Of a DNA stretch of 64,000 nucleotides, positions 4,102 to 60,837 are shown piece by piece. Positions within the stretch are counted from its first letter, which is position 1; each line of letters opens with the position of its first letter. Source of the DNA: an uncultured Acidobacteriota bacterium (lineage in GTDB: Bacteria; Acidobacteriota; Terriglobia; Acidiferrales; UBA7541); assembly GCA_963814605.1 (NCBI GenBank), contig CAWFDD010000003.1:609734-673733 (forward strand). The letters run 5' to 3'. The notes beneath the pieces were generated by a model. It searched no databases and had not been told where the DNA came from. It worked only from the letters and a program-made list of their open reading frames with translations. A program made the position numbers and the translations under genes.

Positions 4102-4613
4102 TTCTGTCCCTCGGCTCCCGACCATGATAGCAGCCGGTTATTCAATCGGTGAGGCAGCGAGCGCCGTCTATTATGATGCAATCTAGCGCCCGGTCCGGTG
4201 AGGGAATTTTGGAATGGACACGATGCCGCTAAGTCACGCACAATCTGGGACTTGAAGAAGACGCAGGGCGAATTCGGCGCGAACTTCTTTGGGATGGGGC
4301 CGTTCAGTCCGTGGGTCAATCATCTCCGAGATGTGGAACACTTTTTCCACTGTTCGGCCTCTCGACTCCATGAAATCCCCAATGCGTGGCGAATGTAAGT
4401 TGCTGATTAGAGGTCATTAACCGGCATTCTTGGCGTAAGTCATTATTAATCAGCGTCGGGAACGAAATGGCAAGCACTTTACCCATTCGTGGAAGCTGGT
4501 CGGGACTAAATGGGCATTCCTAGCGAACCGACGCCAGCTGCCAATGCCATATAACGTTATGCAAAAAAGCCAGTTATTTTGGATTCCGTTTTGGGCATAG
4601 GAGCGCCTGGTAC

Positions 4614-4706: not shown

Positions 4707-5678
4707 ATGACCAGCCAAAGAGTTGACGAACTAACGGTGCAGCAAGTTGACGCCGGCTTCGTTGGAGGCATCAGCCCCGTCATGCAGGCTCTGGAAGGCG
4801 TGGTTGGTGAGATCGCTCCCACAAGTATTCCGGTGTTGCTGGTTGGAGAAAGCGGCACGGGCAAAGAGATGTTCGCGAACCGGATTCATAAGCTTTCGGA
4901 GTTCGGCGAACAGCGGATGGCAAGAATATCCTGCGCGGCCATGAATCCGAGCGCGTTTTCGGGCGAACTGGGACTGAATTCGAACGGACGGAGCGAGACT
5001 GCGAAGAACGCATTCGGCACGCTGTTCCTGGACGAAATCAGCGAACTGGAACCCGAATGCCAGCGCAGTTTGCTGTGCGCGCTGCCTGACGGTGATGCCG
5101 GAACGCGAAGGGGGTTGCTGAAAGCGCGCGTAATTTCGACGACCAGCCGGAACCTGGACGAAGAAATGCGCGAGGGGCGTTTTCGAAGAGAACTCTATTA
5201 TCGGATTAACGGTGTCTGTTTGCGATTGCCGCCTCTGCGCGAACGAAAGGAAGATATTCCGCTGCTGGCAGATTTTTTCCTGGCCAAGCATGCTTCGCAA
5301 ATGCGCCGAGCGAGGCCGTCGGTGAGTCCTCGCACGCTCGAAGCGTTTCTGGATCATTCCTGGCCGGGCAACATACGCGAGCTTGAAAACGTGGTGATAA
5401 AATTGGTGGCGCTTGGGGATGAGCGGCTGGCCATCGCGGAACTGGGAAACGCTGTTTTCGTCGCCCGAAGGACAGAGGCGGTTGCGGTTCAGGGCCATTC
5501 CCTGAAGGCCGCGGCCCGAGCGGCATCGCGCGAAGCGGAGCGCGAACTGATTTTGAAGGCCTTGGCGCGAACGCGATGGAATCGGAAGCGCGCCGCACAG
5601 GAATTGCAGATTAGCTACAAATCCCTGCTGTACAAACTGAAGCAGATCGGGTTCGATGAGTCTGAGGTGAATCCGTGA
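4707..5678 (+). CDS. AAA+ enhancer-binding-protein (NtrC-family) homolog with a Fis-type HTH. It has no receiver or sensory domain, and the GAFTGA loop is deleted.
   Basis: Walker A is GESGTGKE and Walker B is GTLFLDEISEL. The Arg-finger region is FRRELYYRING, followed by PPLRERKEDI and WPGNIRELENV. The C-terminal HTH is RKRAAQELQISYKSLLYKLKQ. An in-frame TGA lies 4 codons upstream of the ATG, so no N-terminal domain is possible. Confidence 0.85.
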   Translation: MTSQRVDELTVQQVDAGFVGGISPVMQALEGVVGEIAPTSIPVLLVGESGTGKEMFANRIHKLSEFGEQRMARISCAAMNPSAFSGELGLNSNGRSETAKNAFGTLFLDEISELEPECQRSLLCALPDGDAGTRRGLLKARVISTTSRNLDEEMREGRFRRELYYRINGVCLRLPPLRERKEDIPLLADFFLAKHASQMRRARPSVSPRTLEAFLDHSWPGNIRELENVVIKLVALGDERLAIAELGNAVFVARRTEAVAVQGHSLKAAARAASREAERELILKALARTRWNRKRAAQELQISYKSLLYKLKQIGFDESEVNP

Positions 5679-5692
5679 GAAGGGAGTGGGCG

Positions 5693-6316
5693 ATGTTGAG
5701 GAAATTCCAACTGGGAGCGGCGGTCGCGCTTTTACTGATTGTCTCTCCGTCGCGCGCTCAAGAGAAGGCAGACAAGAATCCTCCTGCGGCGGGGGAAACC
5801 GGCAGCGCGGCGCCAAAGTCGGCGACCGTTGACCCAAGCTATGTAATCGGCGGGCAGGATGTGCTTGATATCAGCGTTTGGAAAGAGGCTGAACTGACGC
5901 GAGTCGTTCCGGTGCGACCCGACGGCAAGATCTCGCTGCCGCTGCTGAATGATGTGCAGGCGGCGGGATTAACTCCGACACAGCTGGCGGCACAGATTAC
6001 GGAGAGTCTGAAGAAATTCGTGACCAATCCTCAGGTAACAGTGATCGTGACGGCTATCAACAGCCAGAGAATCTATATTCTCGGCGAGGTGAACCGCGCG
6101 GGCGCTTATCCGCTGTTGCCGAATATGACGGTATTGCAGGGATTGTCGAGCGCGGGCGGATTCACGCTGTTCGCCAATCTGAAGAAGATTTACATGTTTC
6201 GCATGGAGAACGGCAAGCAGGTGAAATACCCGTTCAACTACAAAGACGTGATCAACGGGAAAGCACCCGAGGAAAACGTGGTGCTCAAGGCCGGCGATAC
6301 GATCGTGGTTCCGTAG
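5693..6316 (+). CDS. Polysaccharide export protein, Wza/EpsE-like (Poly_export + SLBB)
   Basis: A signal peptide (MLRKFQLGAAVALLLIVSPSRAQE) is followed by ...YVIGGQDVLDISVWKE.ELTRVVPVRPDGKISLPLLNDVQAAGLTPTQLA..I. I prefer the ATG at 5693 (agggag RBS) over the GTG at 5675. Confidence 0.85.
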   Translation: MLRKFQLGAAVALLLIVSPSRAQEKADKNPPAAGETGSAAPKSATVDPSYVIGGQDVLDISVWKEAELTRVVPVRPDGKISLPLLNDVQAAGLTPTQLAAQITESLKKFVTNPQVTVIVTAINSQRIYILGEVNRAGAYPLLPNMTVLQGLSSAGGFTLFANLKKIYMFRMENGKQVKYPFNYKDVINGKAPEENVVLKAGDTIVVP

Positions 6317-6321
6317 GGGAG

Positions 6322-7827
6322 ATGATGAAAACGTTTTTTTACATTGTCGCGACGGCTGTGTGCGTGGTTGCGCTGAGTGCTCCTGCGGTACGTGCGCAAC
6401 AGCCAGCACCGGACCAGAGCCAGCCACAGGCGCCGGATCAGACCCAGCAACAGACTCCGTCGGATCAGGCGCCGGCCCAAGCTGCCACGCCAATTCCTGC
6501 GTATCATTCGCCGCTGGCGTCGGCGGCGAACAATGATGACGAAGACAACGTAACGGAACTGACGCCCGATACGAGCGCGCTGACGGGCGTGCAGAATTTG
6601 ACCATCGGTGCGCCGGTATCGCGCAGCTACTGGCAACCGCACGTTGACTTTACTTCCACCGTGGATTCCAACCCGCAGATCGCGCCTGGACAGAGCAGCT
6701 GGGGCACATGGACTTCCATTATCGGCGGAGTCGATTTGCATCGCACGTCGGGAAATTCCGTGTTGGTACTGGACTACCTCGGCGGCGGAATGTTTTCCAA
6801 TGATTCCAATGGAAACAATGGAGTGCTGCAGGGGCTCAATTTTTCGGACAGGTACTTGTTTCGACGGTGGGCGATTTTGTTTTTCGACCAGCTCAACTAT
6901 TCGCCGGGATCGGCGTTCGGATTGAATGGGCTGGGCGGGGACAGCTTTCCCGGGGGGGGGGCGGCGGGCACAGGAACCCCGTTCAACCCGGGCCAGTCTC
7001 TACTTACCGGGCAGGGCCAGATCCTTCAGAATTCTTTCAACACGGAAGTGGATACGTATCTGACGGCGCGTTCGTCGCTGACGTTTGTGGGGGGATACTC
7101 CCTGGGGCACTATTTTCAGAGCGATTTGTTCGATTACGGGAACGCGAACTTTCGAGTTGGTTACAACTACCAGCTCGACCGGAGAAACACCATTGGTTTG
7201 TCCTATACGTTCAGCGAATTCAACTACAGCAATTCCAATCAGTCGATCACCAGTCATACGGCGCAGGTCTCGTACGGCCGGCGGGTGACCGGGCGCCTGG
7301 CGTTGCAAGTGGGAGTGGGCCCACAGATTTCTTTTTCCCATGAGCCCATTACGGGCGCGGTATCGCCCGGCGGAGCCCCTGGGGCGACTTCGGCGACTTT
7401 GGTCGGCTGGGCGCTGAACGCGAACCTGCAATACCAGTGGGAAAGAACGAGCTTAATCCTGTCCTACAATCACGGTGTGGGAGGGGGGGCGGGGTTACTG
7501 GCCGGCTCTCTGACGGATACCGCGAGCGGATCCGTTACGCGGCGAGTTTCGCGGACTTTTTCGAGCGGAATCACAGGCGGATATTCGCGAAATCAGGGAG
7601 AAGCGATCGGCTTGGGGGCGGCGACCAATCAAACATTCGATTACTGGCTCGGCGGAGCGAGTCTCAGCCATCCGATTGGACGCACTTTGGGACTCTCGCT
7701 GTCGTATCAATTTCAATATCAGACTTCCAATACTCCGCTCTGTGTCGGGCCGACATGCGCAACGAACGTGACACGCAATTTGATTTCCTTTGGAGTGGGA
7801 TGGCACGAGCGGCCGTTATTGTTCTAG
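6322..7827 (+). CDS. Outer-membrane beta-barrel protein of the EPS export cassette
   Basis: The signal peptide ends AVRA/QQ and is followed by a Q/P/D-rich low-complexity linker. The rest shows alternating Y/G/S/T-rich strands and ends in ...WHERPLLF, a C-terminal aromatic residue typical of OMPs. Confidence 0.7.
   Translation: MMKTFFYIVATAVCVVALSAPAVRAQQPAPDQSQPQAPDQTQQQTPSDQAPAQAATPIPAYHSPLASAANNDDEDNVTELTPDTSALTGVQNLTIGAPVSRSYWQPHVDFTSTVDSNPQIAPGQSSWGTWTSIIGGVDLHRTSGNSVLVLDYLGGGMFSNDSNGNNGVLQGLNFSDRYLFRRWAILFFDQLNYSPGSAFGLNGLGGDSFPGGGAAGTGTPFNPGQSLLTGQGQILQNSFNTEVDTYLTARSSLTFVGGYSLGHYFQSDLFDYGNANFRVGYNYQLDRRNTIGLSYTFSEFNYSNSNQSITSHTAQVSYGRRVTGRLALQVGVGPQISFSHEPITGAVSPGGAPGATSATLVGWALNANLQYQWERTSLILSYNHGVGGGAGLLAGSLTDTASGSVTRRVSRTFSSGITGGYSRNQGEAIGLGAATNQTFDYWLGGASLSHPIGRTLGLSLSYQFQYQTSNTPLCVGPTCATNVTRNLISFGVGWHERPLLF
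6952..6961 (+). repeat. G10 homopolymeric tract inside the OMP coding sequence (encodes GGG-A)
   Basis: Counted directly: c6951, g6952-g6961, c6962. A second G7 run lies at 7483-7489 in the same gene. Confidence 0.95.
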
Positions 7828-7891
7828 CGATGGAAGCGAAGGATGATGATCGGCGGGCTGGGCAAGAGATGCACATGGCAGGGAGGCCGGC

Positions 7892-9415
7892 ATGACGGAA
7901 CGTGAACTGACTCCAGCAGACTATCTGGCGATGCTTCGCCGGCGATGGATTCTGATTGCAGCGTGCGCCGTTGTCGGAGCGCCGCTCGCGTACGGAATTT
8001 CACTCTTCCTGCCGAGCCAGTACGTGTCCCAAACACTCGTTCTTGTGGATCAACAGACTGTGCCGACGGATTTTGTGAGGCCAGTGGACACAACGAACAT
8101 CGGCCAGCGTCTGGCGAGCATGCAACAACAGATTTTGAGCCGTACGCGATTGGAGCCGATGATTCGACAATTCGGGCTGTATGCAAACGACGCCAATCGA
8201 GCTTCTATGGACACGCTTGTGGCACGGTTGCAGAAGGCGATCGAAGTGACACCGGTGCAACCAATGGCGCAGACGCAGGCGACCAATTTGCCGGGATTCT
8301 TCGTCAAAGTCACATTGGGCAACCCGCGAACAGCGCAGCAGGTGTGCACTGCGATCACTTCAATGTTCATTGAGCAGAGCCTTTCGCTCCGCCAACAGCA
8401 TTCGCAAGACACAACTCAATTCCTGTCCCAACAACTGGACGATGCCAAGACGCAACTCGATCAGCAGGACGCCAAGCTGGCTGCGTTCAAGTCGCGCTAT
8501 ATCGGCTCGCTCCCGGATGAAGAACAGACGAACTTGAACCTGCTAACCGGATTGACGACGCAACTCGATGCAGCGACTCAGGCACTGGCTCGCGCTCAAC
8601 AGGATAAGACTTTCGCAGAATCCATGCTGGCTCAACAGCTCGCGGCTTGGCAGGAGGCCCAGACTGGCCGCAACCCGGACACGCTGGAGCAGCAGCTCGC
8701 GGTTCTGCAAACCCAGCTATCCAGCCTCGAGGCAAGGTATACGGAAGACTATCCGGATGTGATCAAGACGAAGAATGACATTGCCGCTCTCCAGAAGAAA
8801 GTCGCGGAGAACGAAGGCGCGAAGGGCGTCACGGATCCCTCCAAGGCTCCGAGGTCTTCCGTCGAGCCCGCACAGATCACCCAGTTGCGAGGGCAGATCC
8901 ACGCGCTCGAGCAGACGATCGCCGAGAAGTCGAAGGATCAGGAACAGATCAAGCAGCAAATAAAGCTATATCAAGACCGCGTTCAATCGAGTCCGGTGGT
9001 GGAAGAGCAATACAAAGAGTTAACTCGCGGCTATCAAACGGCCCTGGATTCTTATAATGAACTGCAAAAGAAACGCGGCGAATCGGCGATGGCAACGGAA
9101 CTGGAACGCCAACAGGAAGGTGAACAGTTCCGCGTCCTTGACCCGGCCAATTTGCCGGACCAGCCCAGCTATCCAAATCGTCTTCTTTTCACTACGGGTG
9201 GACTAGCTGGTGGACTGGCGTTGGGATTGGGAATAGCAATCCTACTGGAGATGCGTGACACGTCGATGCGTACGGAGCGAGACATCGAGTTCGTCCTGAA
9301 ATTGCCCGTGCTCGCGTTGGTTCCCGACATCAAGCCATTGTCGGGGAAACCCTCGAGGCCGGCGGCCATTCCGCCAGACACGAGATCGATTCCGAGTCTG
9401 GACGCGGGAGCTTAA
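7892..9415 (+). CDS. Polysaccharide chain-length determinant (Wzz/GumC/EpsF-like PCP without a kinase domain)
   Basis: The N-terminal TM segment is WILIAACAVVGAPLAYGISLFL. A long coiled-coil periplasmic region rich in Q/L/A follows, then a C-terminal TM segment (GGLAGGLALGLGIAILLEM). Confidence 0.85.
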   Translation: MTERELTPADYLAMLRRRWILIAACAVVGAPLAYGISLFLPSQYVSQTLVLVDQQTVPTDFVRPVDTTNIGQRLASMQQQILSRTRLEPMIRQFGLYANDANRASMDTLVARLQKAIEVTPVQPMAQTQATNLPGFFVKVTLGNPRTAQQVCTAITSMFIEQSLSLRQQHSQDTTQFLSQQLDDAKTQLDQQDAKLAAFKSRYIGSLPDEEQTNLNLLTGLTTQLDAATQALARAQQDKTFAESMLAQQLAAWQEAQTGRNPDTLEQQLAVLQTQLSSLEARYTEDYPDVIKTKNDIAALQKKVAENEGAKGVTDPSKAPRSSVEPAQITQLRGQIHALEQTIAEKSKDQEQIKQQIKLYQDRVQSSPVVEEQYKELTRGYQTALDSYNELQKKRGESAMATELERQQEGEQFRVLDPANLPDQPSYPNRLLFTTGGLAGGLALGLGIAILLEMRDTSMRTERDIEFVLKLPVLALVPDIKPLSGKPSRPAAIPPDTRSIPSLDAGA

Positions 9416-9422
9416 GGAGAAC

Positions 9423-10373
9423 ATGTACCAGAGATTCTTTGGACTCAAAGAGAGTCCGTTCAACGTCAATCCTGATCCGCGCTACCTGTATCTGACCAGG
9501 CAGATTCAGGAGGCGCTCGCGGGGCTGACGTATGGCATTCAAAACCGGAAAGGCTTCATTCTGCTGACCGGTGAGGTCGGTACGGGAAAGACAACTCTGC
9601 TCAATCGTTTACTCGATTGGCTACACGGGCAGAGGATGGCTACGGCGTACATTTTCAATTCGCGACTGGAAGTCGATCACCTGTTCGACTACATGATGGC
9701 GGATTTCGAGATTCCCTGTGAGTCGCGGGAAAAGAGTCAGGTGCTTTTGCGGCTCAACCAGTGGCTGCTGGAGCGTTATCGCGCGGGGAAAACGGCAGTC
9801 CTGATCGTGGACGAGGCCCAGAATCTGGAGCCCGAGGTGCTGGAGGAAATTCGGCTGCTGACGAATCTGGAGACCTCAACGGAAAAACTGTTGCAGATCG
9901 TGCTCACAGGACAGCCGGAACTCGAGGAAAAGCTGAAAATGCCGTCGCTCCGTCAGCTGCGCCAGCGAATTACGTTGCGCTGCCATACGGCGCCTCTTTC
10001 GTTGGAAGAAACGTATGGCTATATCGCCGAACGGTTGCGCATTGCCGGGGCGAGCGGCGAGCCGATTTTTTCGAAGGAAGCCATACAGACTGTGCACAGC
10101 TATTCACACGGCATCCCGCGCGTTGTGAATCTTCTTTGCGAGCATTCGATGATCAATGCGTACGTGGACAGCCTCCGGCCGGTTCCGGCACACATGGTGG
10201 AGGAAGTGGCGCGGGAGTTTCAGCTTGATGAGATCGCGCCGATCGCGGCCACGGGGCTTCTTACCGGCGCGCAGCAGAGCGCGAGCACGCAGGCACTGTT
10301 GGAAAACCTGGACGAATTGCTGGGGCGTTTGCGCCAGGTAAATGTTGCGCCTTCCCGTGAAAGGAAATCATGA
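9423..10373 (+). CDS. ExeA/GspA-like AAA ATPase (PEP-CTERM-locus ATPase type)
   Basis: The sequence reads FFGLKESPFNVNPDPRYLYLTRQ...GFILLTGEVGTGKTTLL... The Walker B motif is VLIVDEAQNL. The RBS is aaggag. Confidence 0.85.
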   Translation: MYQRFFGLKESPFNVNPDPRYLYLTRQIQEALAGLTYGIQNRKGFILLTGEVGTGKTTLLNRLLDWLHGQRMATAYIFNSRLEVDHLFDYMMADFEIPCESREKSQVLLRLNQWLLERYRAGKTAVLIVDEAQNLEPEVLEEIRLLTNLETSTEKLLQIVLTGQPELEEKLKMPSLRQLRQRITLRCHTAPLSLEETYGYIAERLRIAGASGEPIFSKEAIQTVHSYSHGIPRVVNLLCEHSMINAYVDSLRPVPAHMVEEVAREFQLDEIAPIAATGLLTGAQQSASTQALLENLDELLGRLRQVNVAPSRERKS

Positions 10374-11308
10374 GTCGGATCCACGAAGCGCTGAAAAAGG
10401 CAGAACAAGAGCGGGCGATCACTCAAGTGTCGGCACCTGATGTCGCAGCCATGCCGCCAGAACCAATTGTTGCCTCGGAGAGATGGACTGGCAGCGCGTT
10501 GGAAGCGCCGGCGAACGTGATGGCACCAGCGAACGTCGCTCTGCCAGGTGATTTTCTACGATTCGACGACTTGCGCGAGCATTGTGCGCACCCGACATGG
10601 CACTTTGATCCAAACGTAAACGTATTCTTCAATCCGAGCTTGAGCGTGCACGGCGCGGAACAGTTTCGGACACTGCGTTCCCGGCTATACCAGCTTCGAG
10701 GAACGCAATCGTTGCGGACACTCTTGGTGACGAGCGCCATCCCGGGCGAGGGAAAGACATTTGTGACTTCCAATCTGGCGCAAGCGATTGTTCGCCAGCC
10801 GGATCGGCGAGCGCTGATTATTGACGGCGATTTGCGCTGCGCGCGACTGCATCTACCACTGGGCGCACCGACCTCTCCGGGACTTACAGACTATCTGCGT
10901 GGTGAAGCAGACGAAATGGCCGTTATCCAGCACGGCCACGAAGGCAATCTTTGTTTTATCGCCGGAGGAAGTCAAGTTACGGATCCCAGCGAACTGCTCT
11001 CGAACGGCCGGTTGCGCAAATTGCTTGATCGCGTGACGCCCGTATTCGATTGGGTGATTATGGACTCGCCGCCGTGCGTTCCGGTCGCAGATGCGAGCAT
11101 TCTGGCCAACTTGTGTGATGGAGTGTTGTTGGTCGTGCGCGCAGGCTCGACACCTTCAGATGTTGCTCAGCGCGCTTGCCAAGAGCTGCAAGGGAAAAAC
11201 GTCGTTGGCGTCGTGCTTAACGCCGTTGACGAGGCCGGGATGTACGGATCGAGTTACTACCAAGGCTATGGATACGGCTACGGTGAACCCAAAGCCTCAG
11301 AAAGCTAG
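10370..11308 (+). CDS. BY-kinase (CpsD/CapB/EpsG-like protein tyrosine kinase)
   Basis: Walker A is SAIPGEGKTFVTSNLA, Walker A' is LIIDGDLR and Walker B is VIMDSPP. The C-terminus carries a Tyr cluster, YGSSYYQGYGYGYG. The start overlaps the upstream stop (ATGA). Confidence 0.9.
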   Translation: MSRIHEALKKAEQERAITQVSAPDVAAMPPEPIVASERWTGSALEAPANVMAPANVALPGDFLRFDDLREHCAHPTWHFDPNVNVFFNPSLSVHGAEQFRTLRSRLYQLRGTQSLRTLLVTSAIPGEGKTFVTSNLAQAIVRQPDRRALIIDGDLRCARLHLPLGAPTSPGLTDYLRGEADEMAVIQHGHEGNLCFIAGGSQVTDPSELLSNGRLRKLLDRVTPVFDWVIMDSPPCVPVADASILANLCDGVLLVVRAGSTPSDVAQRACQELQGKNVVGVVLNAVDEAGMYGSSYYQGYGYGYGEPKASES

Positions 11309-11449
11309 CAAGTCAGCCACGTTTTCATCCGTTTCGCACACGGGAACGACGCTGTCTCGAGCTCTGCAACTCCGCCGGTAAGATTCTCAGGTTGAGACAA
11401 ATTTCGGCCGGTGTGCCCAACCTACCGCTGGTTGACAGGGGCGCGAGGA

Positions 11450-11476
11450 GTTACAGGCCAACGCCCTTCCTGTAAC
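11450..11476. promoter_or_regulatory. Perfect 8-bp inverted repeat GTTACAGG-N11-CCTGTAAC followed by an A7 tract. It is a candidate upstream activator or regulator site.
   Basis: Read directly from the sequence. It lies about 245 nt upstream of the sigma54-type promoter at 11720. Confidence 0.35.
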
Positions 11477-11719
11477 CGTCTATAAAAAAAGCAGATATGT
11501 CATATTCATTGATGCTAACGCGTGCCTAAGCGGCTGGCAGCGAGGTAAGGAACAGCGTTGGCAAATGATGGTAAGAGTTTTCACTCCCCAGCCGCCCATA
11601 TGCGCAGACTTGTGGACCGCTCAAGATCCAAACACCGGGACAGATCATTAAGATCCTTATTTTCAGATACTTAGCAAAGTTGCATGGCAGGCGCAGTTCG
11701 TCCAGATCGACGGTCGGTC

Positions 11720-11734
11720 TGGCACGCTGGTTGC
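11720..11734 (+). promoter_or_regulatory. Candidate sigma54 promoter P2: TGGCAC-N5-TTGC (all specified positions match)
   Basis: TGGCACGCTGGTTGC lies 96 nt upstream of the NusG-paralog ATG, at the end of a 520-nt non-coding gap. Confidence 0.65.
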
Positions 11735-11765
11735 GATATTGTACGCAGTACTCGGGCGGGTTTAT

Positions 11766-11777
11766 GGCGGTAGCCTA
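11766..11777 (+). promoter_or_regulatory. ops-like element GGCGGTAGCCTA in the predicted leader
   Basis: The 8-nt core GGCGGTAG is identical to the enterobacterial ops core (GGCGGTAGnnTG). It sits on the non-template strand, 32 nt downstream of the -12 GC. Confidence 0.45.
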
Positions 11778-11829
11778 GACACTGGCGACGCACGAGCCCC
11801 AGGAAGCGGAAGGGAGCTGTTGATCCGAA

Positions 11830-12402
11830 ATGAGTCCCGCACCGGATGGCCAACAGTGGTTTGCTCTCCAGGTAAGGACGCGTTGGGAAGGCTCCACCGC
11901 CGTGTTGCTCTCGGGCAAGGGGTATCAGACTTTTCTTCCCACGTATAAGACGAGGAAACGATGGAAGGGTAAGGTGCGCGAGGTGGACTCCGCGCTATTC
12001 CCGGGCTATGTGTTTTGCAACTTTGATGCGCAGAAGCGCTTGCCGATCCTGGTCACGCCCGGCGTAATTTCAGTCGTCGGCCAGGGCCGGATACCGATGC
12101 CAGTGGATGATGGTGAGATAGCCGCGATCCAAACGGTTGTTTCATCGGGGCTGCGCGCGGAACCGTGGCCCTATCTCGAACTCGGCCAGAGAATCCGAAT
12201 CGAACAGGACGCGCTCCAGGGTTTGGAAGGTATTTTGGTTAATTTTAGGGGCAACCATCGCATTGTGGTGTCGGTATCACTTTTACGCCGGTCGGTTGCG
12301 TTGGAAATTGATCGAGCTTGCGTGAGTCCCGTTGCACCTTCTCGAGTGGCGGCTCGCGGGCCGGTCGGTGTGCATCCGATGCTGCAGGGTGTCGTCGCTT
12401 AG
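11830..12402 (+). CDS. NusG-family paralog (RfaH/UpxY-like operon-specific antiterminator)
   Basis: The NGN-like N-terminus reads WFALQVRTRWE...LLSGKGYQTFLPTY...ALFPGYVFCNFD. The KOW-like C-terminus reads GQRIRIEQDALQGLEGILVNF. It is the first gene after the long gap. Confidence 0.8.
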   Translation: MSPAPDGQQWFALQVRTRWEGSTAVLLSGKGYQTFLPTYKTRKRWKGKVREVDSALFPGYVFCNFDAQKRLPILVTPGVISVVGQGRIPMPVDDGEIAAIQTVVSSGLRAEPWPYLELGQRIRIEQDALQGLEGILVNFRGNHRIVVSVSLLRRSVALEIDRACVSPVAPSRVAARGPVGVHPMLQGVVA

Positions 12403-12456
12403 ATCTCAGATTGATTTAGCTTGTGCCGGACGAGGAACCGCAAGACAGAAATCAAA

Positions 12457-13641
12457 ATGGCCAACAGCGACCCAAAGATTTTTCTTGGAGATGTAAGACC
12501 TCCGCAACGAAATGGACGCAAGGCGTTGTCGCGTATGGGCGCTGTGCCACCGCGGCGAGAAGCGATCCTCGGAGAAGATACGCTGCACGCGATGCTGACG
12601 CTGGAACGCAGGCGCGCAGAGCGGTCGCGCAAGCCTTTCGTTCTGATGCTGCTGGACTCGCGCGAAGTGCCGAAGAATGGAAACGGCTCGAGATTCACTG
12701 AGCAGCTTTCCTCCGTTGTTTGCGACGCGACCCGTGAGACCGATCTAATTGGCTGGTATGAAGAGGGCGCGATCCTGGCCGTCATCTTCACGGAGATTAG
12801 CGTCGAGGGAAAGAATCCCATCACCGAGGTTTTGCATTCCAAGGTCGTAGCAGCATTGCGAGAGAATCTCGATCACCGGCTGGCGCCAAAATTAGTCGTT
12901 ACAGTCCATCTTTTCCCGGAGAACTGGAATACGGAACATCCCGACCGAGTGGCTGATATTAAGCTCTATCCCGAGCTTTCGAAAGGTAGCAGCAAGAAGC
13001 GGCTACCCATGATTGTGAAACGCGTAATCGATGTTCTCGGTAGCGGCGCGTTGTTGCTCATCCTTTCACCGATATTGGCGGCGATTGCTCTATTAATTAA
13101 ACTGACGTCCAAGGGACCGGTTATTTTCGAACAGGAGCGCCTGGGACAGTTCGGGAAACGATTCGGATGTCTCAAGTTCCGAACGATGTACACGAATAAT
13201 GACCCGAAGATACATCGTGAGTTCGTTCAACGCTTCATCGCCGGTAACGAGCAGAAGCGGGTAGAGAGCGAAACCGAGTCGGTTGTTTACAAGATCACGA
13301 ACGACCCTCGCATCACGCCGATCGGCAAGTTCCTGCGCAAGACCAGCCTCGATGAGTTTCCGCAGTTCTGGAATGTCCTGCGCGGCGAAATGTCACTTGT
13401 GGGCCCGCGCCCTCCGGTACCGTATGAGTTTGAAGTGTACGATTTTTGGCACCGGCGCAGAGTGCTCGAGGTGAAGCCGGGTGTCACCGGATTGTGGCAG
13501 GTGAGCGGACGAAGCCGAACTTGCTTCGACGACATGGTTCGATTGGATCTCCGGTATTCCCAGTCCTGGTCACTGTGGCTCGATCTTAAGATCCTGGTGG
13601 CCACACCACGTGCGGTCTTCACGAGTGAAGGCGCGTTCTAA
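12457..13641 (+). CDS. Polyprenyl-phosphate phosphoglycosyl transferase (Bac_transf, monotopic PglC/WbaP-C type) with an N-terminal degenerate GGDEF-like domain
   Basis: The C-terminal part reads [43 protein letters not shown]...KFRTM...[37 protein letters not shown]. See findings for the N-terminal ~190 aa. I prefer the ATG at 12457 over the TTG at 12421. Confidence 0.9.
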
Positions 13642-13848
13642 TTTTCGCTCGAACCTCGATTTCCGCTGCTTCTTTATCTTGGAATTCGCAAGTACCTCGT
13701 TTTCTGATTTATCAGCACTCCGTAAACGCATCGTCTAAGTCGATGAATCAGCCTGAGGCAGGCGAGCGCGAGGGAACGATTCGATCGAACTAGACTTCAG
13801 GTGCATCAAGATACGAACAGACACTTCTCCGCAGACTGCAGAGGAAAA

Positions 13849-14850
13849 ATGATCCGAGTCGGTGTGATTGGCTACGGTTATTGGGGTCCCAATATCGTCC
13901 GAAACTTGCACGGATTGGACTCAACACGCGTGGAGATGGTGTGTGACATGAGCTCCAAGGCTCTGGCGCGTGTGAGGAAGGCCTATCCGGGCATCTCCAC
14001 GTGCTCCGATCCGACGGAAATTCTGACTTCGCCTGCCATCGACGCGGTGGCGGTGATCACCCCGGTTTGGACTCACTACGAACTGGCGAAGAAGGCGCTG
14101 GAAAATGGGAAGCACGTTTTCGTTGAGAAGCCGTTTACCTCGACCGCGGAGCAGGCCGAGGAATTAATTGAACTCGCGGCGCGGAAAAATCTGAAGATTA
14201 TGGTGGACCACACGTTTTTGTTCACCGGGGCGGTGCGAAAGATTCGCGAACTCACGGAAAGCGGCGCGCTGGGCGATCTCTATTACTATGATTCACTGCG
14301 CGTCAACCTTGGGTTGTTCCAGCACGACGTGAGCGTCATTTGGGATTTGGCTCCTCACGACCTCGCGATCATGGATCACCTGATCAAAGGCGAGCCCGAG
14401 GCCGTGGTAGCAACCGGCGAACGCCACCTGAACGGAGTCGAAGACGTAGCGTTTATGACGATCTATTACCCGGGAAACGTAATCGCGCACATTAACGTTA
14501 ACTGGCTCTCACCGGTGAAGATTCGTATGACCATGATCGGCGGCCAAAAGAAGATGCTGGTCTGGAACGATCTTGTGGCAGACGAAAAACTGCGGGTGTA
14601 CGACAAAGGCGTTCAAATTACTTCGGGTGATGGAATTCGAGACCTACTGGTCAGTTACCGCACGGGCGACATGTGGGCGCCGCAGGTGGCGCAGTTGGAA
14701 GCGCTGCACGTGGAACTCGATTACTTCGCGGATTGCATCCTGAACGACAAGACGCCCTTCAACGATGGGCATGCCGGTTTGCGCATCGTGCGCATGCTGG
14801 AAGCTGCCGACGTGTCGATCCAAAAGAGAGGAGAATTGGTCCGCCTGTGA
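13849..14850 (+). CDS. Gfo/Idh/MocA-family NAD-dependent sugar oxidoreductase (WbpB/GnnA-like)
   Basis: MIRVGVIGYGYWGPNIVRNL... is a Rossmann motif, and ...HVFVEKPFT... follows. I prefer the ATG at 13849 (gagga RBS) over the GTG at 13801. Confidence 0.85.
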   Translation: MIRVGVIGYGYWGPNIVRNLHGLDSTRVEMVCDMSSKALARVRKAYPGISTCSDPTEILTSPAIDAVAVITPVWTHYELAKKALENGKHVFVEKPFTSTAEQAEELIELAARKNLKIMVDHTFLFTGAVRKIRELTESGALGDLYYYDSLRVNLGLFQHDVSVIWDLAPHDLAIMDHLIKGEPEAVVATGERHLNGVEDVAFMTIYYPGNVIAHINVNWLSPVKIRMTMIGGQKKMLVWNDLVADEKLRVYDKGVQITSGDGIRDLLVSYRTGDMWAPQVAQLEALHVELDYFADCILNDKTPFNDGHAGLRIVRMLEAADVSIQKRGELVRL

Positions 14851-15344
14851 ACGAATTCTGCGTAATTTCGCCGGACGTGAAGCTGGGACAAGGCGTCAAG
14901 CTTTCCAAGTTCATCAATCTGTATGGCTGTCAGATCGGCGATGAAACGAAAATCGGCGCGTTTGTTGAAATTCAAAAGAATTCCAGCGTCGGACGCCGCT
15001 GCAAGGTTTCGAGTCACACGTTCGTATGTGAGGGCGTGACGATTGAAGACAACGTATTCATCGGCCACGGCGTGACATTCATCAACGATTCCTATCCGCG
15101 CGCGACGACGCCTGACGGTGAGATCCAAACCGAAAAGGATTGGCGCGTGGAGACCACGGTGGTCAAACGCGGAGCTTCCATCGGATCGGGATCCACGATT
15201 CTTTCCAAGATCGTGATCGGCGAGAACGCGATAGTCGGCGCGGGGAGTGTGGTGACCCGCGACGTGCCCGCCAACACGATTGTTGCCGGCAATCCGGCAA
15301 GGATTCTGCGCTCAATTGAAAATCCAACAAAGGTGAACGGATGA
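14847..15344 (+). CDS. Left-handed beta-helix (hexapeptide) N-acetyltransferase, WbpD/WlbB-like
   Basis: Hexapeptide repeats are visible (IGDETKIGAFVEIQKNSSVGRRCKVSSHTFVCEGVTIEDNVFIGHGVTF...). The GTG at 14847 overlaps the upstream TGA (GTGA). The upstream 58 codons of the track ORF overlap the previous gene. Confidence 0.8.
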   Translation: MNEFCVISPDVKLGQGVKLSKFINLYGCQIGDETKIGAFVEIQKNSSVGRRCKVSSHTFVCEGVTIEDNVFIGHGVTFINDSYPRATTPDGEIQTEKDWRVETTVVKRGASIGSGSTILSKIVIGENAIVGAGSVVTRDVPANTIVAGNPARILRSIENPTKVNG

Positions 15345-16546
15345 CGAACAACGCAAAGATTCCTTTTGTCGATTTGGTGACTCTGCATCGCGAACTCGAG
15401 ACGGAATTACTGGAAGTGTGCAAGAAGGCCATTCAATCGGCCGGCTTCATCGGAGGGCCGGAGGTCGAGGGATTCGAGCGCGAGTTTGCCCAGTTTTGTG
15501 ATGCGAAGCATTGCGTGGGGGTCAACAGCGGCACCGATGCGCTCCGTTTTGCTTTGACAGCGGCAGGAGTTCAGCCCGGGGATATCGCGCTGACCGTGTC
15601 GCATACCTTTATCGCGACTACCGAGGCGATATCTCAGGCAGGCGCTCAACCGGAGTTTATTGATGTCGACCGGCGGACGTACAACATGGACCCGGGAAAG
15701 CTCCGGCACTTTCTGGACGCGAAATGCGTGTTCGACAAAGCGACGGGCCGATACGTTCACAAGAATTTGGGAAAACCCGTGACAGCGGTGGTTCCAGTTC
15801 ACCTCTACGGCCAGATGGCTGATATGGACGCCATCTTGGAGATTGCGGAGAAGTACAAACTGATCGTCGTTGAAGACGCTTGCCAGGCGCACGGCGCGGA
15901 GTATTTCTCCAAGAAGCAGAATCGCTGGTTGAAGGCAGGTTCGGTTGGCCGCGCGGCGGCGTTCAGTTTTTATCCCGGAAAGAATCTGGGCGCGTGCGGA
16001 GAAGGCGGAGCGATCACCACGAATGATCCGGAAATTGCGCGCAAGTCGGCGATGATTCGAGATCACGGCCAGTCCAAGAAGTACTATCACGACGTCGAAG
16101 GTTACAACGGGCGGCTCGATTCGATGCAAGCGGGTATGCTGCGCGTCAAATTGAAGCATCTTTCGAAGTGGAACGAGCAGCGTCGCGAGAGTGCGCGAGT
16201 CTATGATGAGCTGTTCAAGGCGATGGGAGGCAGCGTTGTGTCGCCCTACCAGCCGAGCGAATCAAAGTCCGTATATCACTTGTACGTGGTGCGGACACCG
16301 TTCCGCGATGAGCTGCAGAAACATTTGAACGAAGCCGGCATCGGAACCGGAATTCACTATCCCATCCCGGTTCACGTCCAGAAAGCCTATGCCTCCTTGG
16401 GCTGGAAAAAGGGCGATCTTCCCGAGTCGGAAGAAGCCGCGGATCAAATTCTCTCACTCCCCATGTTTGCCGGATTGACGACGGATCAACAAAAGCGCGT
16501 AGCGGAGAGCATCTGTCAGTTCGCAACTTCCTACGCAGTTCGCTGA
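15341..16546 (+). CDS. DegT/DnrJ/EryC1/StrS-family PLP-dependent sugar aminotransferase
   Basis: The sequence reads ...GVNSGTDALRFAL...VEDACQAHGAEY...FSFYPGKNLGACGEGGAITTND..., which contains the PLP-lysine region. The start overlaps the upstream stop (ATGA). Confidence 0.9.
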   Translation: MTNNAKIPFVDLVTLHRELETELLEVCKKAIQSAGFIGGPEVEGFEREFAQFCDAKHCVGVNSGTDALRFALTAAGVQPGDIALTVSHTFIATTEAISQAGAQPEFIDVDRRTYNMDPGKLRHFLDAKCVFDKATGRYVHKNLGKPVTAVVPVHLYGQMADMDAILEIAEKYKLIVVEDACQAHGAEYFSKKQNRWLKAGSVGRAAAFSFYPGKNLGACGEGGAITTNDPEIARKSAMIRDHGQSKKYYHDVEGYNGRLDSMQAGMLRVKLKHLSKWNEQRRESARVYDELFKAMGGSVVSPYQPSESKSVYHLYVVRTPFRDELQKHLNEAGIGTGIHYPIPVHVQKAYASLGWKKGDLPESEEAADQILSLPMFAGLTTDQQKRVAESICQFATSYAVR

Positions 16547-16595
16547 TTTCGACGGTCCCACTATCCTCGGAATTCCTTCCAGTCAATCAAAATTG

Positions 16596-17789
16596 ATGCG
16601 AGAAATCTCTTCTGGATTGGAAGCAGCGGGCCGGGCACTCCTTAGCAGTGCGTCTGCTCGGATGCAGACCGGCATTCGCACAAGCGGTGAGCGCCAGATG
16701 GATGTGCGGGAGTTGAATTCGCTGGCGCTGCGATCCCTCGGCTCTCTTTTCAACGAAAGAGAGCAGCTTTTTTCCCACCGCGTTATTTTGACTGGCAATG
16801 GATTTTGGTGGGACGCATCGTCGCGGAAACGTACGATGGTCGCGCTTCTGGGATTGCATCGGCTAGCAGAATTTGGGGGCACCCAACCGTTTGACATTGC
16901 CTCGGTTCGGGACGTCGTCCTGCGGGACAAGAGTTGGGTAAAGAAAGCCGGAGACCTGGGCCTGCTGACTTGGTTTGTTGCTGTTTGCGCGCCGGATCGG
17001 CTGGGTGCAATATTCAAGGAGTTCGATTTCGAAAGCGCACTAACGATCTATTCGGATGGCCGGCAGGCTCGTACGACCGGCTTGGCGTGGTTCTTGGCGG
17101 GCATCGCCCACGCTCGACTCGCGTGTCCTGAATCGCTTCCGGACCTGACCGACGTGGCAGTGGATGCGTACCATTTGCTCAAAGATAACCAGAGCGAAAA
17201 CGGCATTTTTGGGCACGCCGCTTCGCCTGGCTTTCCTCGGGAGATGCTGTATGGCCGACTGGGAACGTTCTCCGATCAAATATATTCGATCTACGCGCTT
17301 TCGTTGTTTGCCCAAGCTTTTCATATCGAGGAACCGCTCGAATCTGCTCTGGGGTGCGCAAATGAGGTGTGTGCGCTGCAAGGAGAGATGGGGCAATGGT
17401 GGTTCCTTTACGATAAACGTACGGCTCGCGTCGTAAACCGCTATCCCGTGATTTCACTGCATCAAGATGGAACGGCTCCCTGCGGACTTCTTGCGCTGGA
17501 AGAAGCGACCGGTCGAAACTTCCAAGAATCAATATTCAAGGGATTGTCATGGATTGCCGGGGCAAACGAACTTGGAAATGATCTCCGAAATCGTGATCAA
17601 GCGTTCATTTGGGATTCGATCGGACCCAACAGTCGAATCCGAAGATACTCGGATGCAGCGCTTGGTTTGATGTTTCCTCGCCGCGAGACCAAAGCACGAG
17701 GTCTTGGAATCCGGTACGAAGCTCGCGCCGATCATTTGGGATGGCTACTCTACGCGTTCGGAAGGCATGGCCTACCGGACAGTAGATAA
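16596..17789 (+). CDS. Hypothetical protein, possibly of alpha/alpha-toroid (six-hairpin) type
   Basis: The ORF is long and its codon usage looks like that of its neighbours. Repeated helix-pair patterns with aromatic-rich turns are present (GNGFWWD, GQWWFLYD). I recognise no diagnostic motif. The start is uncertain. Confidence 0.5.
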   Translation: MREISSGLEAAGRALLSSASARMQTGIRTSGERQMDVRELNSLALRSLGSLFNEREQLFSHRVILTGNGFWWDASSRKRTMVALLGLHRLAEFGGTQPFDIASVRDVVLRDKSWVKKAGDLGLLTWFVAVCAPDRLGAIFKEFDFESALTIYSDGRQARTTGLAWFLAGIAHARLACPESLPDLTDVAVDAYHLLKDNQSENGIFGHAASPGFPREMLYGRLGTFSDQIYSIYALSLFAQAFHIEEPLESALGCANEVCALQGEMGQWWFLYDKRTARVVNRYPVISLHQDGTAPCGLLALEEATGRNFQESIFKGLSWIAGANELGNDLRNRDQAFIWDSIGPNSRIRRYSDAALGLMFPRRETKARGLGIRYEARADHLGWLLYAFGRHGLPDSR

Positions 17790-17836
17790 GTGATTTACTG
17801 GCGCTCGATTGCGCATCCACGGCTGCGATTTGACTA

Positions 17837-18724
17837 ATGAAGACCGCTTCTCACTACGTATTGATCACGCCGGCGCGCAATGAGGCACAGTTTCTTGCGC
17901 TGACCATAGAATCGGTGATCGCGCAGACCGTCAAGCCGACCAAGTGGGTTATCGTCAGTGATGGTTCAACAGACGGCACGGATGAAATTGTGGCCCGCTA
18001 CACCGGCGAACACCAATGGATTGAACTCGTCCGGATGCCCCAGCGCGGAGAGCGGCATTTTGGCGGAAAAGCTGCTGCTGTTAATGCGGGCCGCGAGCGA
18101 TTGAGCGCCTCGCAGTATGACGTGATCGGTAATTTGGACGCGGATGTATCCTTCGAATCCGATTATTTCGAATTCATGATGGCGCGATTTGCCGAAAACC
18201 CCAAGTTAGGTTGTGCCGGTACCGCGTTTCGCGAAAAGGACTTGAGTTACAACTATGAGTTCGTGGGCACCGAACATGTTTCAGGCATGTGCCAAATGTT
18301 TCGCCGCGAGTGTTTCGAAGAAATCGGGGGATATGCGGCGATCAAATCGGGTGGGATCGATCTCATAGCCGTATTGAGTGCACGGGTGAAGGGCTGGGAA
18401 ACGCGAACCTTTCCCGAGAAGACTTTCGTCCACCACCGGACTCAAGCAGGCGCACTGCACTCAGGTTTGCGAGAACGAGTGCACGCGGGCCGTAAAGACT
18501 ATCTTCTGGGAAATCACCCATTGTGGGAGTTTTCCCGAAGCATCTATCAGATGCATCGCAAGCCATATGTGCTGGGCGGCTTGCTCGTTCTTGGATCCTA
18601 TATGTGGAATCTGGTTCGCGGTGTCGAGAGAACGATCCCAAAAAACCTGATGATTTTGCGCCAGAACGACCAGATGAAGCGTTTGAAAATGATCGTACAG
18701 CGCCGCCTCCCTTTGGGTAGCTAG
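17837..18724 (+). CDS. Glycosyltransferase family 2
   Basis: The sequence reads YVLITPARNEAQFLALTIESVIAQTVKPTKWVIVSDGSTDGTDEIV...NLDADV... Confidence 0.85.
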   Translation: MKTASHYVLITPARNEAQFLALTIESVIAQTVKPTKWVIVSDGSTDGTDEIVARYTGEHQWIELVRMPQRGERHFGGKAAAVNAGRERLSASQYDVIGNLDADVSFESDYFEFMMARFAENPKLGCAGTAFREKDLSYNYEFVGTEHVSGMCQMFRRECFEEIGGYAAIKSGGIDLIAVLSARVKGWETRTFPEKTFVHHRTQAGALHSGLRERVHAGRKDYLLGNHPLWEFSRSIYQMHRKPYVLGGLLVLGSYMWNLVRGVERTIPKNLMILRQNDQMKRLKMIVQRRLPLGS

Positions 18725-18734
18725 GCTCATTTAG

Positions 18735-19886
18735 GTGGCCGGACAATTCACCTTCAGGAATTCCATGCAATCATCGGAACAAAATACGCCTCGTACTGGT
18801 TCGCGGATCGAAAGCAATGCCTCCCTCGTGGAGCATGGGTATATTGTCGAGAGGAGCGATCCCGTGCTAGTGACGGGGGCGAACGGATTTATCGGTTCTC
18901 GAGTCGTCGAGGGCTTACTGGAACTTGGCTTCGAGAACGTGCGTTGTCTTGCAAGGTCTTCGAGTGGTGGCAACCGGCTCCAGGCAATCGCCAAAATCGA
19001 CGAAAACGCCTCTCGAATGGAAATAATCACCGGGAATCTCCTTTCGCCGCAGGACTGTGCAAATGCTGCGAAAGATGTAAAAGTCATATTTCACCTCGCC
19101 GCCGGGCGAGGCGAGAAGTCTTTTCCCGATGCATTCATGAATTCCGTTGTTACGACGAGAAATTTGCTCGAGGCCGCAGGCCATGGCTGCCTGAAGCGCT
19201 TCGTAAACATCAGTTCATTTGCCGTTTACTCCAATCGCGGAAAAAGCCGAGGCAAATTGCTGGACGAAACCTGTCCCATGGAAGACCACCCAGTGCTGCG
19301 CGGAGAAGCATACTGCTTCGCAAAAGTGGAGCAGGACCGAATCGTGATGGAGTATGGGAGAAAACAGGGCATTCCCTACGCGATCGTAAGGCCAGGCCAA
19401 GTGTATGGCCCGGGCAACGAAGGAATCACAGGCCGTGTTGGAATCGGAACGTTCGGTATTTTTCTGCACTTGGGCGGTTCTAATACGATACCGCTGACCT
19501 ATGTTGACAACTGCGCCGACGCCATAATTCTGATCGGGCTCAAGCACGGGACCGACGGGCAGGTATTTAATGTAGTGGATGACAACCTTCCAACTAGCCG
19601 TAGATTTCTGCGCCTTTACAAGAAGAATGTCGGTGCCTTTCCCTCGCTGTACATTCCTCACGCGGTCAGCTACGCGCTCTGCTACCTATGGGAAAAATAC
19701 TCTGTTTGGTCCCAGGAACAACTGCCATTGGCGTTCAATCGCAGGAGATGGCACTCCTATTGGAAAAGTACGAGCTACAGTAACGAAAAACTCAAAACGC
19801 TCGTGGGTTGGAAACCAAGAGTCAATACGCAGGACGCGCTAAGCCGTTTCTTTGCGAGCTGCAGAATGCAGAGAGCCCGTGCTTAA
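18735..19886 (+). CDS. NAD-dependent epimerase/dehydratase (extended SDR)
   Basis: VLVTGANGFIGSRVVEGL is the NAD-binding motif, and the catalytic YCFAK fits YxxxK. The start is uncertain (GTG at 18735 or ATG at 18765). Confidence 0.8.
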   Translation: MAGQFTFRNSMQSSEQNTPRTGSRIESNASLVEHGYIVERSDPVLVTGANGFIGSRVVEGLLELGFENVRCLARSSSGGNRLQAIAKIDENASRMEIITGNLLSPQDCANAAKDVKVIFHLAAGRGEKSFPDAFMNSVVTTRNLLEAAGHGCLKRFVNISSFAVYSNRGKSRGKLLDETCPMEDHPVLRGEAYCFAKVEQDRIVMEYGRKQGIPYAIVRPGQVYGPGNEGITGRVGIGTFGIFLHLGGSNTIPLTYVDNCADAIILIGLKHGTDGQVFNVVDDNLPTSRRFLRLYKKNVGAFPSLYIPHAVSYALCYLWEKYSVWSQEQLPLAFNRRRWHSYWKSTSYSNEKLKTLVGWKPRVNTQDALSRFFASCRMQRARA

Positions 19887-21003: not shown

Positions 21004-21050
21004 GAAGTGTTTGGCTTCACGATTCCCGGACGAACCTAAGCGTACAAAAG

Positions 21051-22136: not shown

Positions 22137-22150
22137 GAAAGCCCAAAACC

Positions 22151-23974: not shown

Positions 23975-24013
23975 CCCAGCCGCGCGAACACCGATTAGGC
24001 AAGGGAGCATAGT

Positions 24014-25498: not shown

Positions 25499-25628
25499 CC
25501 CGGCCAGTAAAAGGGAGCCTTCGGTTTGAGATCACCGTACGACGAGACTCGGTCAATGAATTATGCGCGGCATGGTTGCGCGCGGTTTGGAATGTTGGAT
25601 GAATGACGCCATTTCACGAGGAAAATTC

Positions 25629-26981: not shown

Positions 26982-27052
26982 GCCCCTTTTTGCGGAAGGC
27001 ACGGGTTTAAGTCAGCGCCTGCGAGCTTCGTCAGGAGATAGAGGATGAGCAG

Positions 27053-28075: not shown

Positions 28076-28078
28076 TCC

Positions 28079-29778: not shown

Positions 29779-29939
29779 GGATCATTGCCGCGGCTGTTCC
29801 ATCGTCGGAACCGTCCCGCGTCCTGCGCAAGAGGCCCCGAGGCCGTAAGCGAGGCACACTGCGGAAGTCGGGAAGCGTCGTTTCACGACAGCAGCCCCTT
29901 TCAAAGCGAGTTGGACGCGTCGCGAAGGAGATAGACCTT

Positions 29940-30593: not shown

Positions 30594-30607
30594 GAGCTAC
30601 GTTCAAC

Positions 30608-60625: not shown

Positions 60626-60837
60626 GCGTCTTGGGCGCATGGTATCGAGGGCCTATCCCTAGACCGGATAAAAAGTGGAAGTATTTTTCCCTAGAATGGC
60701 ATTTACGAGCCGCGCATCGAGGACCGCTAGGACAGGTGTATGCGGGCCAAATAAGCAGCAACTTGTTTCTTATTAATAACTTACAGGATGTCTCGCGAAC
60801 CTGTCGGCCGACTTCCGTAAGTCGACTTTGGCAGAGT

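Follow-up and report, generated by a model that had tools for sequence, protein, structure and literature searches.

The 64,000-nt stretch of DNA analysed here (the window) comes from an Acidobacteriota genome and represents an XrtA/PEP-CTERM exopolysaccharide locus. Our subject is the leader of its exopolysaccharide operon, in which a sigma-54-type promoter, an element resembling the enterobacterial ops (operon polarity suppressor) site and the gene for a specialised NusG paralog follow one another on the + strand. A second promoter-plus-ops module, 49 kb from the first, leads a nucleotide-sugar operon (60971-63086, + strand). The features concerned are as follows (ORF, open reading frame).

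11309-11829: intergenic gap of 521 nt (ORF map)
11548-11588, + strand: conserved upstream block AGGAAC-N-TTGGCAAATGATGGTAAGAGTTTTCAC, ~40 bp, from phylogenetic footprinting of the gap
11720-11734, + strand: sigma-54-type -24/-12 promoter TGGCAC-GCTGG-TTGC (TGGCACGCTGGTTGC), an exact consensus match
11761-11777, + strand (non-template): ops-like 17-mer TTTAT-GGCGGTAGCCTA (site 1), at about +16 to +32 of the transcript
11830-12402, + strand: specialised NusG paralog of 190 amino acids (aa), first gene of the operon (Pfam and NCBIfam)
12421-31198, + strand: tightly packed run of exopolysaccharide genes (ORF map, family matches)
38455-38462, - strand: third exact copy of the 8-mer GGCGGTAG, antisense within ORF 37751-38908
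60672-60692, + strand: second copy of the upstream block, GTGGAAGTATTTTTCCC, read from the sequence, ~152 nt before the second promoter
60829-60843, + strand: second sigma-54-type promoter TGGCAG-AGTGA-TTGC (TGGCAGAGTGATTGC), one mismatch to TGGCAC-N5-TTGC
60881-60897, + strand: second ops-like element TAAAT-GGCGGTAGCGCG, with the 8-mer at 60886-60893
60971-62242, + strand: sugar C-methyltransferase (Pfam Methyltransf_13/14)
62265-63086, + strand: glucose-1-phosphate cytidylyltransferase (NCBIfam TIGR02623, 219 bits, below the cut-off of 300.25)

The initial annotation of this DNA had proposed a perfect sigma-54 promoter, an ops core 32 nt past its -12 GC and a NusG paralog as first gene of the transcript at 11830, and all three were found in place. 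The promoter is the single exact occurrence of TGGCAC-N5-TTGC in the window, and the core, an exact GGCGGTAG, lies at 11766-11773 on the + strand. The promoter is located in the intergenic gap as proposed, although the gap measures 521 nt and not 520. The second leader copy of the 8-mer does stand behind a sigma-54-type promoter, but at 60886-60893 instead of 60895, and the count of only two exact copies was too low by one. The third copy, whose flanks (GGCTGA...AAGACC) lack the extended motif, is a chance occurrence. Three copies in the window compare with 1.48 expected, and 17 of 100 shuffles reach three; because this number is not significant, the case for the element rests on comparison with other genomes. 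No degenerate ops beyond the two sites was found in the 13642-13850 gap or elsewhere in the window, where the remaining near-matches all have three mismatches, as chance predicts.

Conservation was assessed in 53 loci encoding relatives of the paralog, one genome per species, at 86% to 37% protein identity. In 46 of the 53 loci an exact GGCGGTAG on the coding strand precedes the paralog gene by 42-107 nt; the leaders that carry it span 86% down to 46% protein identity, and their flanks have diverged. The 332 kb of these loci contain 50 copies of the 8-mer in all, where base composition predicts 14.7, and 46 of the 50 are found on the coding strand in the leader of the paralog. The promoter is similarly retained: TGGC-N8-TGC occurs upstream of the paralog in 43/53 loci, and TGG-N9-TGC stands 39-52 nt (mode 46) upstream of the first base of the element, G1, in 45/47 leaders. 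In a leader logo anchored on the 8-mer, a 17-mer, T-T-W-A-T-GGCGGTAGC-C-T-A, stands out of the diverged flanks, and the family consensus of the conserved unit reads TTWAT-GGCGGTAGC-Y-T-R, which contains the Escherichia coli ops hairpin GCGGTAGC and T11. Judged from these alignments, promoter, ops-like element and NusG paralog make up a unit that is conserved across Acidobacteriota.

The association with the paralog extends to relatives with another type of promoter. Bryobacterales-type relatives and one further locus (L050) have sigma-70-like TTGACA promoters and no -24/-12 element, and carry GGCGGTAGCTTG, GGCGGCAGCTTG, GCGGCAGC or GGCGGTAGTGTG upstream of the paralog. On this comparison, the element follows the paralog rather than the promoter type. 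In L050 and most Bryobacterales-type loci, TGGGAC-N5-7 takes the place of TTWAT before the hairpin; TGGGAC-N5-..GC was considered as a sigma-54 promoter in these relatives and rejected, as its -12 GC is not conserved. A variant, GACGGCAGTC (L045, L047 and L174), together with related copies in L176, replaces G2:C9 by A2:T9 and preserves the stem. This covariation favours a hairpin, and is suggestive only because it may be a single evolutionary event. Two side observations concern the same clade: the loop base T6 is often C in the loci with sigma-70-like promoters (L045, L047, L174-L183), and in L176 the whole leader element occurs in two tandem copies (...CGGCAGGACGGCAGTTTGCGCCGA..., ...CGGCAGAACGGTAGTCTGCGCCGA...), ~65-300 nt upstream of the paralog gene (1342).

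Metagenome contigs were also scanned for TGGCA-N6-TTGC-N(20-45)-ATGGCGGTAGC, which returned at least 120 loci; the counts that follow hold among the matches listed. In 51 to ~55 of 120 loci the gene next to the element encodes a NusG paralog that shares 44-83% identity with the window protein. Many of the others begin with glycan genes unrelated to NusG, and the promoter-plus-ops unit is therefore also found at the head of other surface-glycan operons. A Pfam scan of 48 non-NusG first-gene proteins recovered GNAT/FemAB acyltransferases, sugar C-methyltransferases, RmlC-like epimerases, GFO oxidoreductases, CheR-type methyltransferases, DUF354, NAD-dependent epimerases, Wzx-like flippases and a CapD-like protein (Polysacc_synt_2), and most of the families act on sugars or polysaccharides. 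Some of these first genes have counterparts in the window. Five are orthologous to the GFO-type oxidoreductase at 13801-14850 and ten are related to the GNAT/FemAB-like gene at 40409-41458. Seven loci (L061, L073, L104, L124, L145, L147 and L154) place promoter and ops before orthologues (65-75% identity) of the C-methyltransferase at 60971-62242, and the second window site is therefore conserved in position. From this distribution, one factor apparently serves several unlinked operons in trans.

The bases that the search pattern had left free were nonetheless conserved. Within the element, 110 sites gave Y10 in 100, T11 in 92 and R12 in 102, and the bases upstream of the core read T-T-A. The same was true of the -24/-12 element, which had the form TGGCAG (G at +5) in 85/110 sites and A before TTGC (+10) in 84/110. 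The exact E. coli 12-mer, GGCGGTAGCGTG, was found in four loci (L120, L149, L153 and L154). Site 1 of the window comes close to it: GGCGGTAGCCTA agrees with the 12-nt ops GGCGGTAGnnTG at 9 of 10 specified positions, the exception being A for G12. Its core can be drawn as a GGC/GCC stem with a GGTA loop (GGC-GGTA-GCC), to which C10 can supply the third stem pair.

Phylogenetic footprinting of the gap identified the block at 11548-11588, ~150 nt upstream of the -24 element, as the most conserved stretch besides the promoter and ops. A strict regular expression for its right half was run on 116 promoter-upstream regions among the matches listed; it matched 60/116 and 0.2% of shuffles. The matches fall nearly all at -126 to -163 from TGGCA, before NusG and non-NusG leaders alike. 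The second window copy, GTGGAAGTATTTTTCCC, fails this strict expression and resembles the form found upstream of the orthologous C-methyltransferase leaders L104, L124 and L145. Based on its conservation, the block is a candidate enhancer (upstream activating sequence) for a sigma-54 activator, and its distance fits the layout expected of enhancer-dependent promoters. The predicted start of the transcript from the first promoter is near 11746. Two further conserved blocks were noted in the gap, a small palindrome TCTCA-GGT-TGAGA (11383-11397) and CTGTAACC (11471-11476). A sigma-70 promoter made of TTGCGA and TTTAAT was rejected from the sequence, with a spacer of 23 nt that is too long, and so was a small ORF starting at ATGATGG (~11568), whose ATG is not conserved in relatives.

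The remaining features of the window are as follows.

1813-4125: PrsT-like tetratricopeptide repeat protein (TIGR02917, 344 bits, cut-off 312)
4707-5678, + strand: AAA+/HTH_8 protein resembling sigma-54 activators (Pfam Sigma54_activat, 102 bits, shortened match)
5675-11308: export protein, chain-length determinant, ATPase and tyrosine kinase
22033-22107, + strand: tRNA-Thr, anticodon CGT (ARAGORN and Rfam, 44.3 bits)
31237-33033, - strand: ORF of 598 aa interrupting the glycan gene run (ORF map; no Pfam match)
49096-51285, + strand: protein like pyrroloquinoline quinone dehydrogenases, between glycan gene blocks

The gene directly after the NusG paralog encodes a priming sugar transferase, and the run 12421-31198 goes on with a GFO oxidoreductase, glycosyltransferases, a Wzy-like protein and others. 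Plus-strand genes continue from 11830 up to 31198 and then give way to the minus-strand ORF 31237-33033, and a scan of the window found no promoter-plus-ops unit ahead of the next plus-strand genes. For these two reasons the plausible reach of the transcription unit is likely ~19 kb. The processive transcript of more than 35 kb first suggested for this operon is not supported, given the end of the run at 31198 and the tRNA-Thr within it. This tRNA gene overlaps the 3' end of a GNAT-like ORF (21051-22136) inside the exopolysaccharide run. Elsewhere, the AAA+/HTH_8 protein is the first gene of the export operon, and the best NCBIfam match of 49096-51285 was 'acido-empty-quinoprotein group A' (TIGR04528, 470.8 bits, below the cut-off of 650).

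The paralog belongs to the NusG family by its Pfam NGN domain (62 bits) and by NCBIfam, where UpxY (NF033644) scored 95.9 bits against a cut-off of 100, LoaP 54.9 and NusG 37.2. It remained below the RfaH equivalog cut-offs of TIGR01955 (70.6 against 144.5 bits) and NF006534 (56.7 against 124 bits). Among 5,897 homologues, the best came from Acidobacteriota metagenome-assembled genomes labelled Acidiferrales or Terriglobia. Two relatives (P0271 and P0215) are called 'UpxY family' by the National Center for Biotechnology Information, at least one of them from Bryobacteraceae, and the few distant family representatives that have names are Acidobacteriota (Bryobacteraceae). The family has a basic beta-hairpin, TRKRWKGKVRE, in the N-terminal domain; it resembles the feature that Saba et al. 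(PMC11685472) connect with contacts of class-1 UpxY to upstream duplex DNA, which would fit the conserved TTWAT. An AlphaFold2 model from a shallow alignment had a mean pLDDT (predicted local distance difference test) of 57 and drew the C-terminal domain as beta strands at pLDDT below 50. In Bryobacterales-type relatives an ORF of ~90 aa directly follows the paralog (L174 2144-2422, L175 2108-2380, L177 2115-2390). It gave weak or faint NikA-like matches in L174 and L177 and none in L175, and it could be a UpxZ-like partner.

We consider it fairly probable that enhancer block, sigma-54 promoter and an ops-type element at about +20 form a composite cis-module controlling the ~19-kb exopolysaccharide operon led by the NusG paralog. 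The conservation is solid, and the mechanism that we infer from it is drawn by analogy. RfaH reads a hairpin in the non-template strand of ops (PMC5995543). Recruitment of RfaH to E. coli ops requires G4, G5, A7 and G8; the pause itself falls at T11, with support from G12 (PMC5995543). In the acidobacterial operon, an enhancer-binding protein encoded outside the window would activate sigma-54 RNA polymerase at 11720-11734, with a start near 11746. The sigma-54 dependence of these promoters is itself inferred from their sequence. Polymerase would then pause at T11 of site 1 (~+31), the predicted pause position; around it the leader follows the consensus elemental pause, which has G at -11/-10 (here G1/G2), T at -1 and a purine at +1. 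The exposed non-template strand could form the GGC-GGTA-GCC mini-hairpin, to which the NGN domain of the paralog would bind, probably with additional contacts to the TTWAT duplex just upstream. The paralog would dock on polymerase in the place of general NusG and would remain bound, suppressing pausing and Rho-type termination along the operon. Since its gene lies downstream of its own site, the circuit would be self-reinforcing, and since the same unit also heads other glycan operons (second site 60829-60897), the factor would act in trans on a regulon as well.

Several results count against this proposal. The first concerns the activator. The translation of the AAA+ protein at 4707-5678 has no GAFTGA between Walker A and Walker B and no receiver domain, and G[AS][FY]TG[AG] is not encoded in any frame of the window. 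This protein, the only activator-like one in the window, is probably not the activator of the sigma-54 promoters and may be a sigma-54-independent regulator or an anti-activator. Second, the operon contains 13 sites resembling intrinsic terminators against 21.7 expected from shuffles. Intrinsic terminators were therefore rejected as a rationale for antitermination, and any need for it would concern pausing or Rho. Third, the element is absent from five orthologue leaders (L038, L040, L048, L049 and L182), of which L038 has a full promoter-plus-ops unit 2.5 kb away on the other strand, before a GFO oxidoreductase. Fourth, the second window site has C and not T at pause position 11.

The protein raises a further difficulty. 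The paralog was aligned by MAFFT with E. coli RfaH, at 23% identity and with the register of helix 1 uncertain. In this alignment, at such low identity, H20 becomes L26, R23 becomes G29 and R73 becomes P77; K10 corresponds to R16, R16 to S22 and Q24 to K30. At the RfaH reading positions the family retains VR(S/T)R, KG and TPGV, and R16 of the paralog, invariant in the family, keeps the basic charge at the position of K10. In RfaH, G5 and T6 of ops are read by K10, H20, R23 and R73 (PMC5995543), and K10 is an early-acquired DNA-binding determinant that is Phe in NusG (Wang et al., PMC7593976). Recruitment by ops in the manner of RfaH, as at first suggested for this operon, therefore cannot simply be assumed for a paralog without the ops-reading side chains H20, R23 and R73, and recognition, if it occurs, would use other contacts.

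The last difficulty is one of spacing. The distance between the -12 TTGC and G1 is bimodal, with preferred values of 31-33 nt and 39-42 nt both in NusG leaders and in the others (L054-L173 and both window sites). The two spacings differ by about one helical turn and place the element at ~+20 or +30. Such constraint is not predicted by a purely elongation-phase signal and for that reason weighs against one. Shared descent of leader types may explain part of it, and a functional tie to sigma-54 promoter escape is possible. The spacing is also the best argument for a different reading, in which the 17-mer is an operator for a duplex-DNA-binding protein (a repressor, roadblock or co-activator) and its likeness to ops is coincidental or convergent. 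Such an operator would account for the fixed position relative to the promoter, and would be compatible with a paralog that lacks the RfaH reading residues; a DNA-binding protein, the AAA+/HTH_8 protein without GAFTGA, is also encoded nearby. However, the core matches the E. coli hairpin GCGGTAGC at every base, and T11 and R12, both pause determinants, are conserved along with it. The element also stays with the NusG paralog behind sigma-70-like promoters at other distances, is always in the non-template strand in one orientation with no palindrome beyond the 3-bp stem, and shows a compensatory change of one stem pair. We therefore regard an operator as unlikely.

An action in nascent RNA was weighed in the same way, the element serving as a hairpin or tag for the KOW domain of the paralog, as proposed for LoaP, or for another RNA-binding factor. 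The element is transcribed (~+16 to +32), the GGC/GCC stem and the A:U variant would pair in RNA too, and LoaP is reported to require an RNA hairpin in the work as cited in PMC11685472. Against this stand the folding results: RNAalifold on the leaders gave only a 3-bp stem (-4.4 kcal/mol), and when 46 leaders were folded under constraint and compared with shuffled flanks, the mean z was -0.08 and enclosing pairs were as many as in shuffles. A larger RNA hairpin around the element, plausible by eye in three leaders (L023, L005 and L037), was ruled out by these two analyses. No conserved pairing was found for a nascent-RNA pause hairpin upstream of the pause site, where only ~20 nt of RNA precede the element. 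No Rfam family reached threshold in the gap, and JUMPstart (RF01707) scored 12.8 bits at 11746-11777 and 23.1 bits in L120, which carries the E. coli 12-mer, against a cut-off of 35. The NCBIfam LoaP score of the paralog is also below those for UpxY and RfaH. The lack of a larger conserved RNA structure favours a sequence or DNA-level signal and makes a nascent-RNA element quite improbable. Finally, a strong promoter-proximal pause that recruits no factor, with the paralog loading without sequence specificity and the pause perhaps synchronising translation or allowing time for sigma-54 promoter escape, would agree with the fit to the elemental-pause pattern set out above, which ops itself exemplifies (PMC5995543), but is very improbable given that G4-G8, which in E. 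coli are dispensable for pausing and required for RfaH recruitment (PMC5995543), are invariant here and that the element is strictly tied to genomes and loci carrying the paralog.

Recruitment of the paralog at the ops-like element, as set out above, would have several consequences. The element would represent a third phylum with a near-identical enterobacterial hairpin and a protein without the enterobacterial reading residues, which bears on the origin of ops recognition, be it ancestral, by horizontal acquisition or by convergence. Well over 100 natural sites and their variants offer material for probing the recognition code. For Acidobacteria, abundant soil bacteria that are genetically hard to study, the proposal predicts that an enhancer gates the initiation of exopolysaccharide transcription, that the processivity factor amplifies its own synthesis and that the operons concerned form a glycan regulon, and the promoter-plus-ops pattern provides a simple tag for surface-glycan operons in Acidobacteriota metagenomes. 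As a more tentative extension, which we hold to be possible and rather doubtful, the hairpin GCGGTAGC could be an old cross-phylum recruitment signal for specialised NusG paralogs that predates RfaH, is read here by a protein without the recognition pocket of RfaH and is tied directly to sigma-54 promoters with helical phasing (+20 or +30). If true, elongation-factor loading would join the hand-over from an enhancer-dependent initiation complex; such a coupling of initiation and antitermination is undescribed.

To our knowledge, the way in which specialised NusG paralogs reach their operons has been worked out in detail for just two factors, enterobacterial RfaH and, since 2024, Bacteroides UpxY. 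LoaP of Bacillus velezensis is another NusG paralog, encoded beside a long operon that it makes processive. LoaP is proposed to use a nascent RNA hairpin, in contrast to the leaders described here, which have no such conserved structure. Our literature search found no description of a promoter, ops and NusG-paralog system of this kind in Acidobacteriota, and full-text matches to the 8-mer were primer lists only. Control of PEP-CTERM genes in Proteobacteria is comparable in part, since an activator motif and a sigma-54 site lie upstream of them (PrsK/PrsR/PrsT; Haft et al. 2006, PMC1569441). The window has the same pairing of a putative activator motif with a -24/-12 site, and a PrsT homologue (1813-4125). 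Unlike in Proteobacteria, however, the motif precedes glycan-biosynthesis operons, not PEP-CTERM protein genes, and is coupled to ops and a NusG paralog, and the window encodes no GAFTGA-bearing activator of the PrsR type.

The likeness to RfaH and ops lies in the hairpin core found in the non-template strand of polysaccharide operon leaders: GCGGTAGC is present in each of the eight ops sites of E. coli (Saba et al. 2024, PMC11685472). The acidobacterial element keeps all of G1-C9 and T11, with a purine at 12, and the factor is a NusG paralog of which one apparently serves several unlinked operons. Unlike RfaH, the paralog fails the equivalog cut-off and lacks H20, R23 and R73. Its gene also comes first after its own site, while rfaH is a monocistronic gene without linkage to its targets (PMC7593976). 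Compared with E. coli ops, the element has the extra conserved TTWAT and a fixed distance to a sigma-54 promoter; the Rfam JUMPstart model is not reached, and the phylum is Acidobacteriota.

In Bacteroides, the leader of each UpxY operon contains an ops-like hairpin that UpxY reads along with the duplex DNA upstream of it (PMC11685472), and the Bacteroides opsX hairpins have the form YGCGNAGCR (PMC11685472). The paralog is likewise first in a polysaccharide operon with a putative recruitment site in its own leader. The hairpins share GCG..AGC stems and conserved DNA immediately upstream, and the proteins a basic beta-hairpin in the N-terminal domain, UpxY being the best NCBIfam match, albeit just under its cut-off (95.9 against 100). 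In contrast to UpxY, the window has no UpxZ-like second gene and the leaders no conserved pause hairpin. One element is common to many operons, whereas UpxY systems have one cognate pair per operon, and the promoter is of the sigma-54 type instead of an invertible one of the sigma-A type. That long polysaccharide operons recruit a specialised NusG paralog through an ops-type site in their leader is a logic known from RfaH and UpxY. As read from its sequence, the acidobacterial system is neither of the two: it joins a UpxY-like self-leader to an RfaH-like shared element, set at a fixed distance from sigma-54 promoters that have a putative enhancer block in common.

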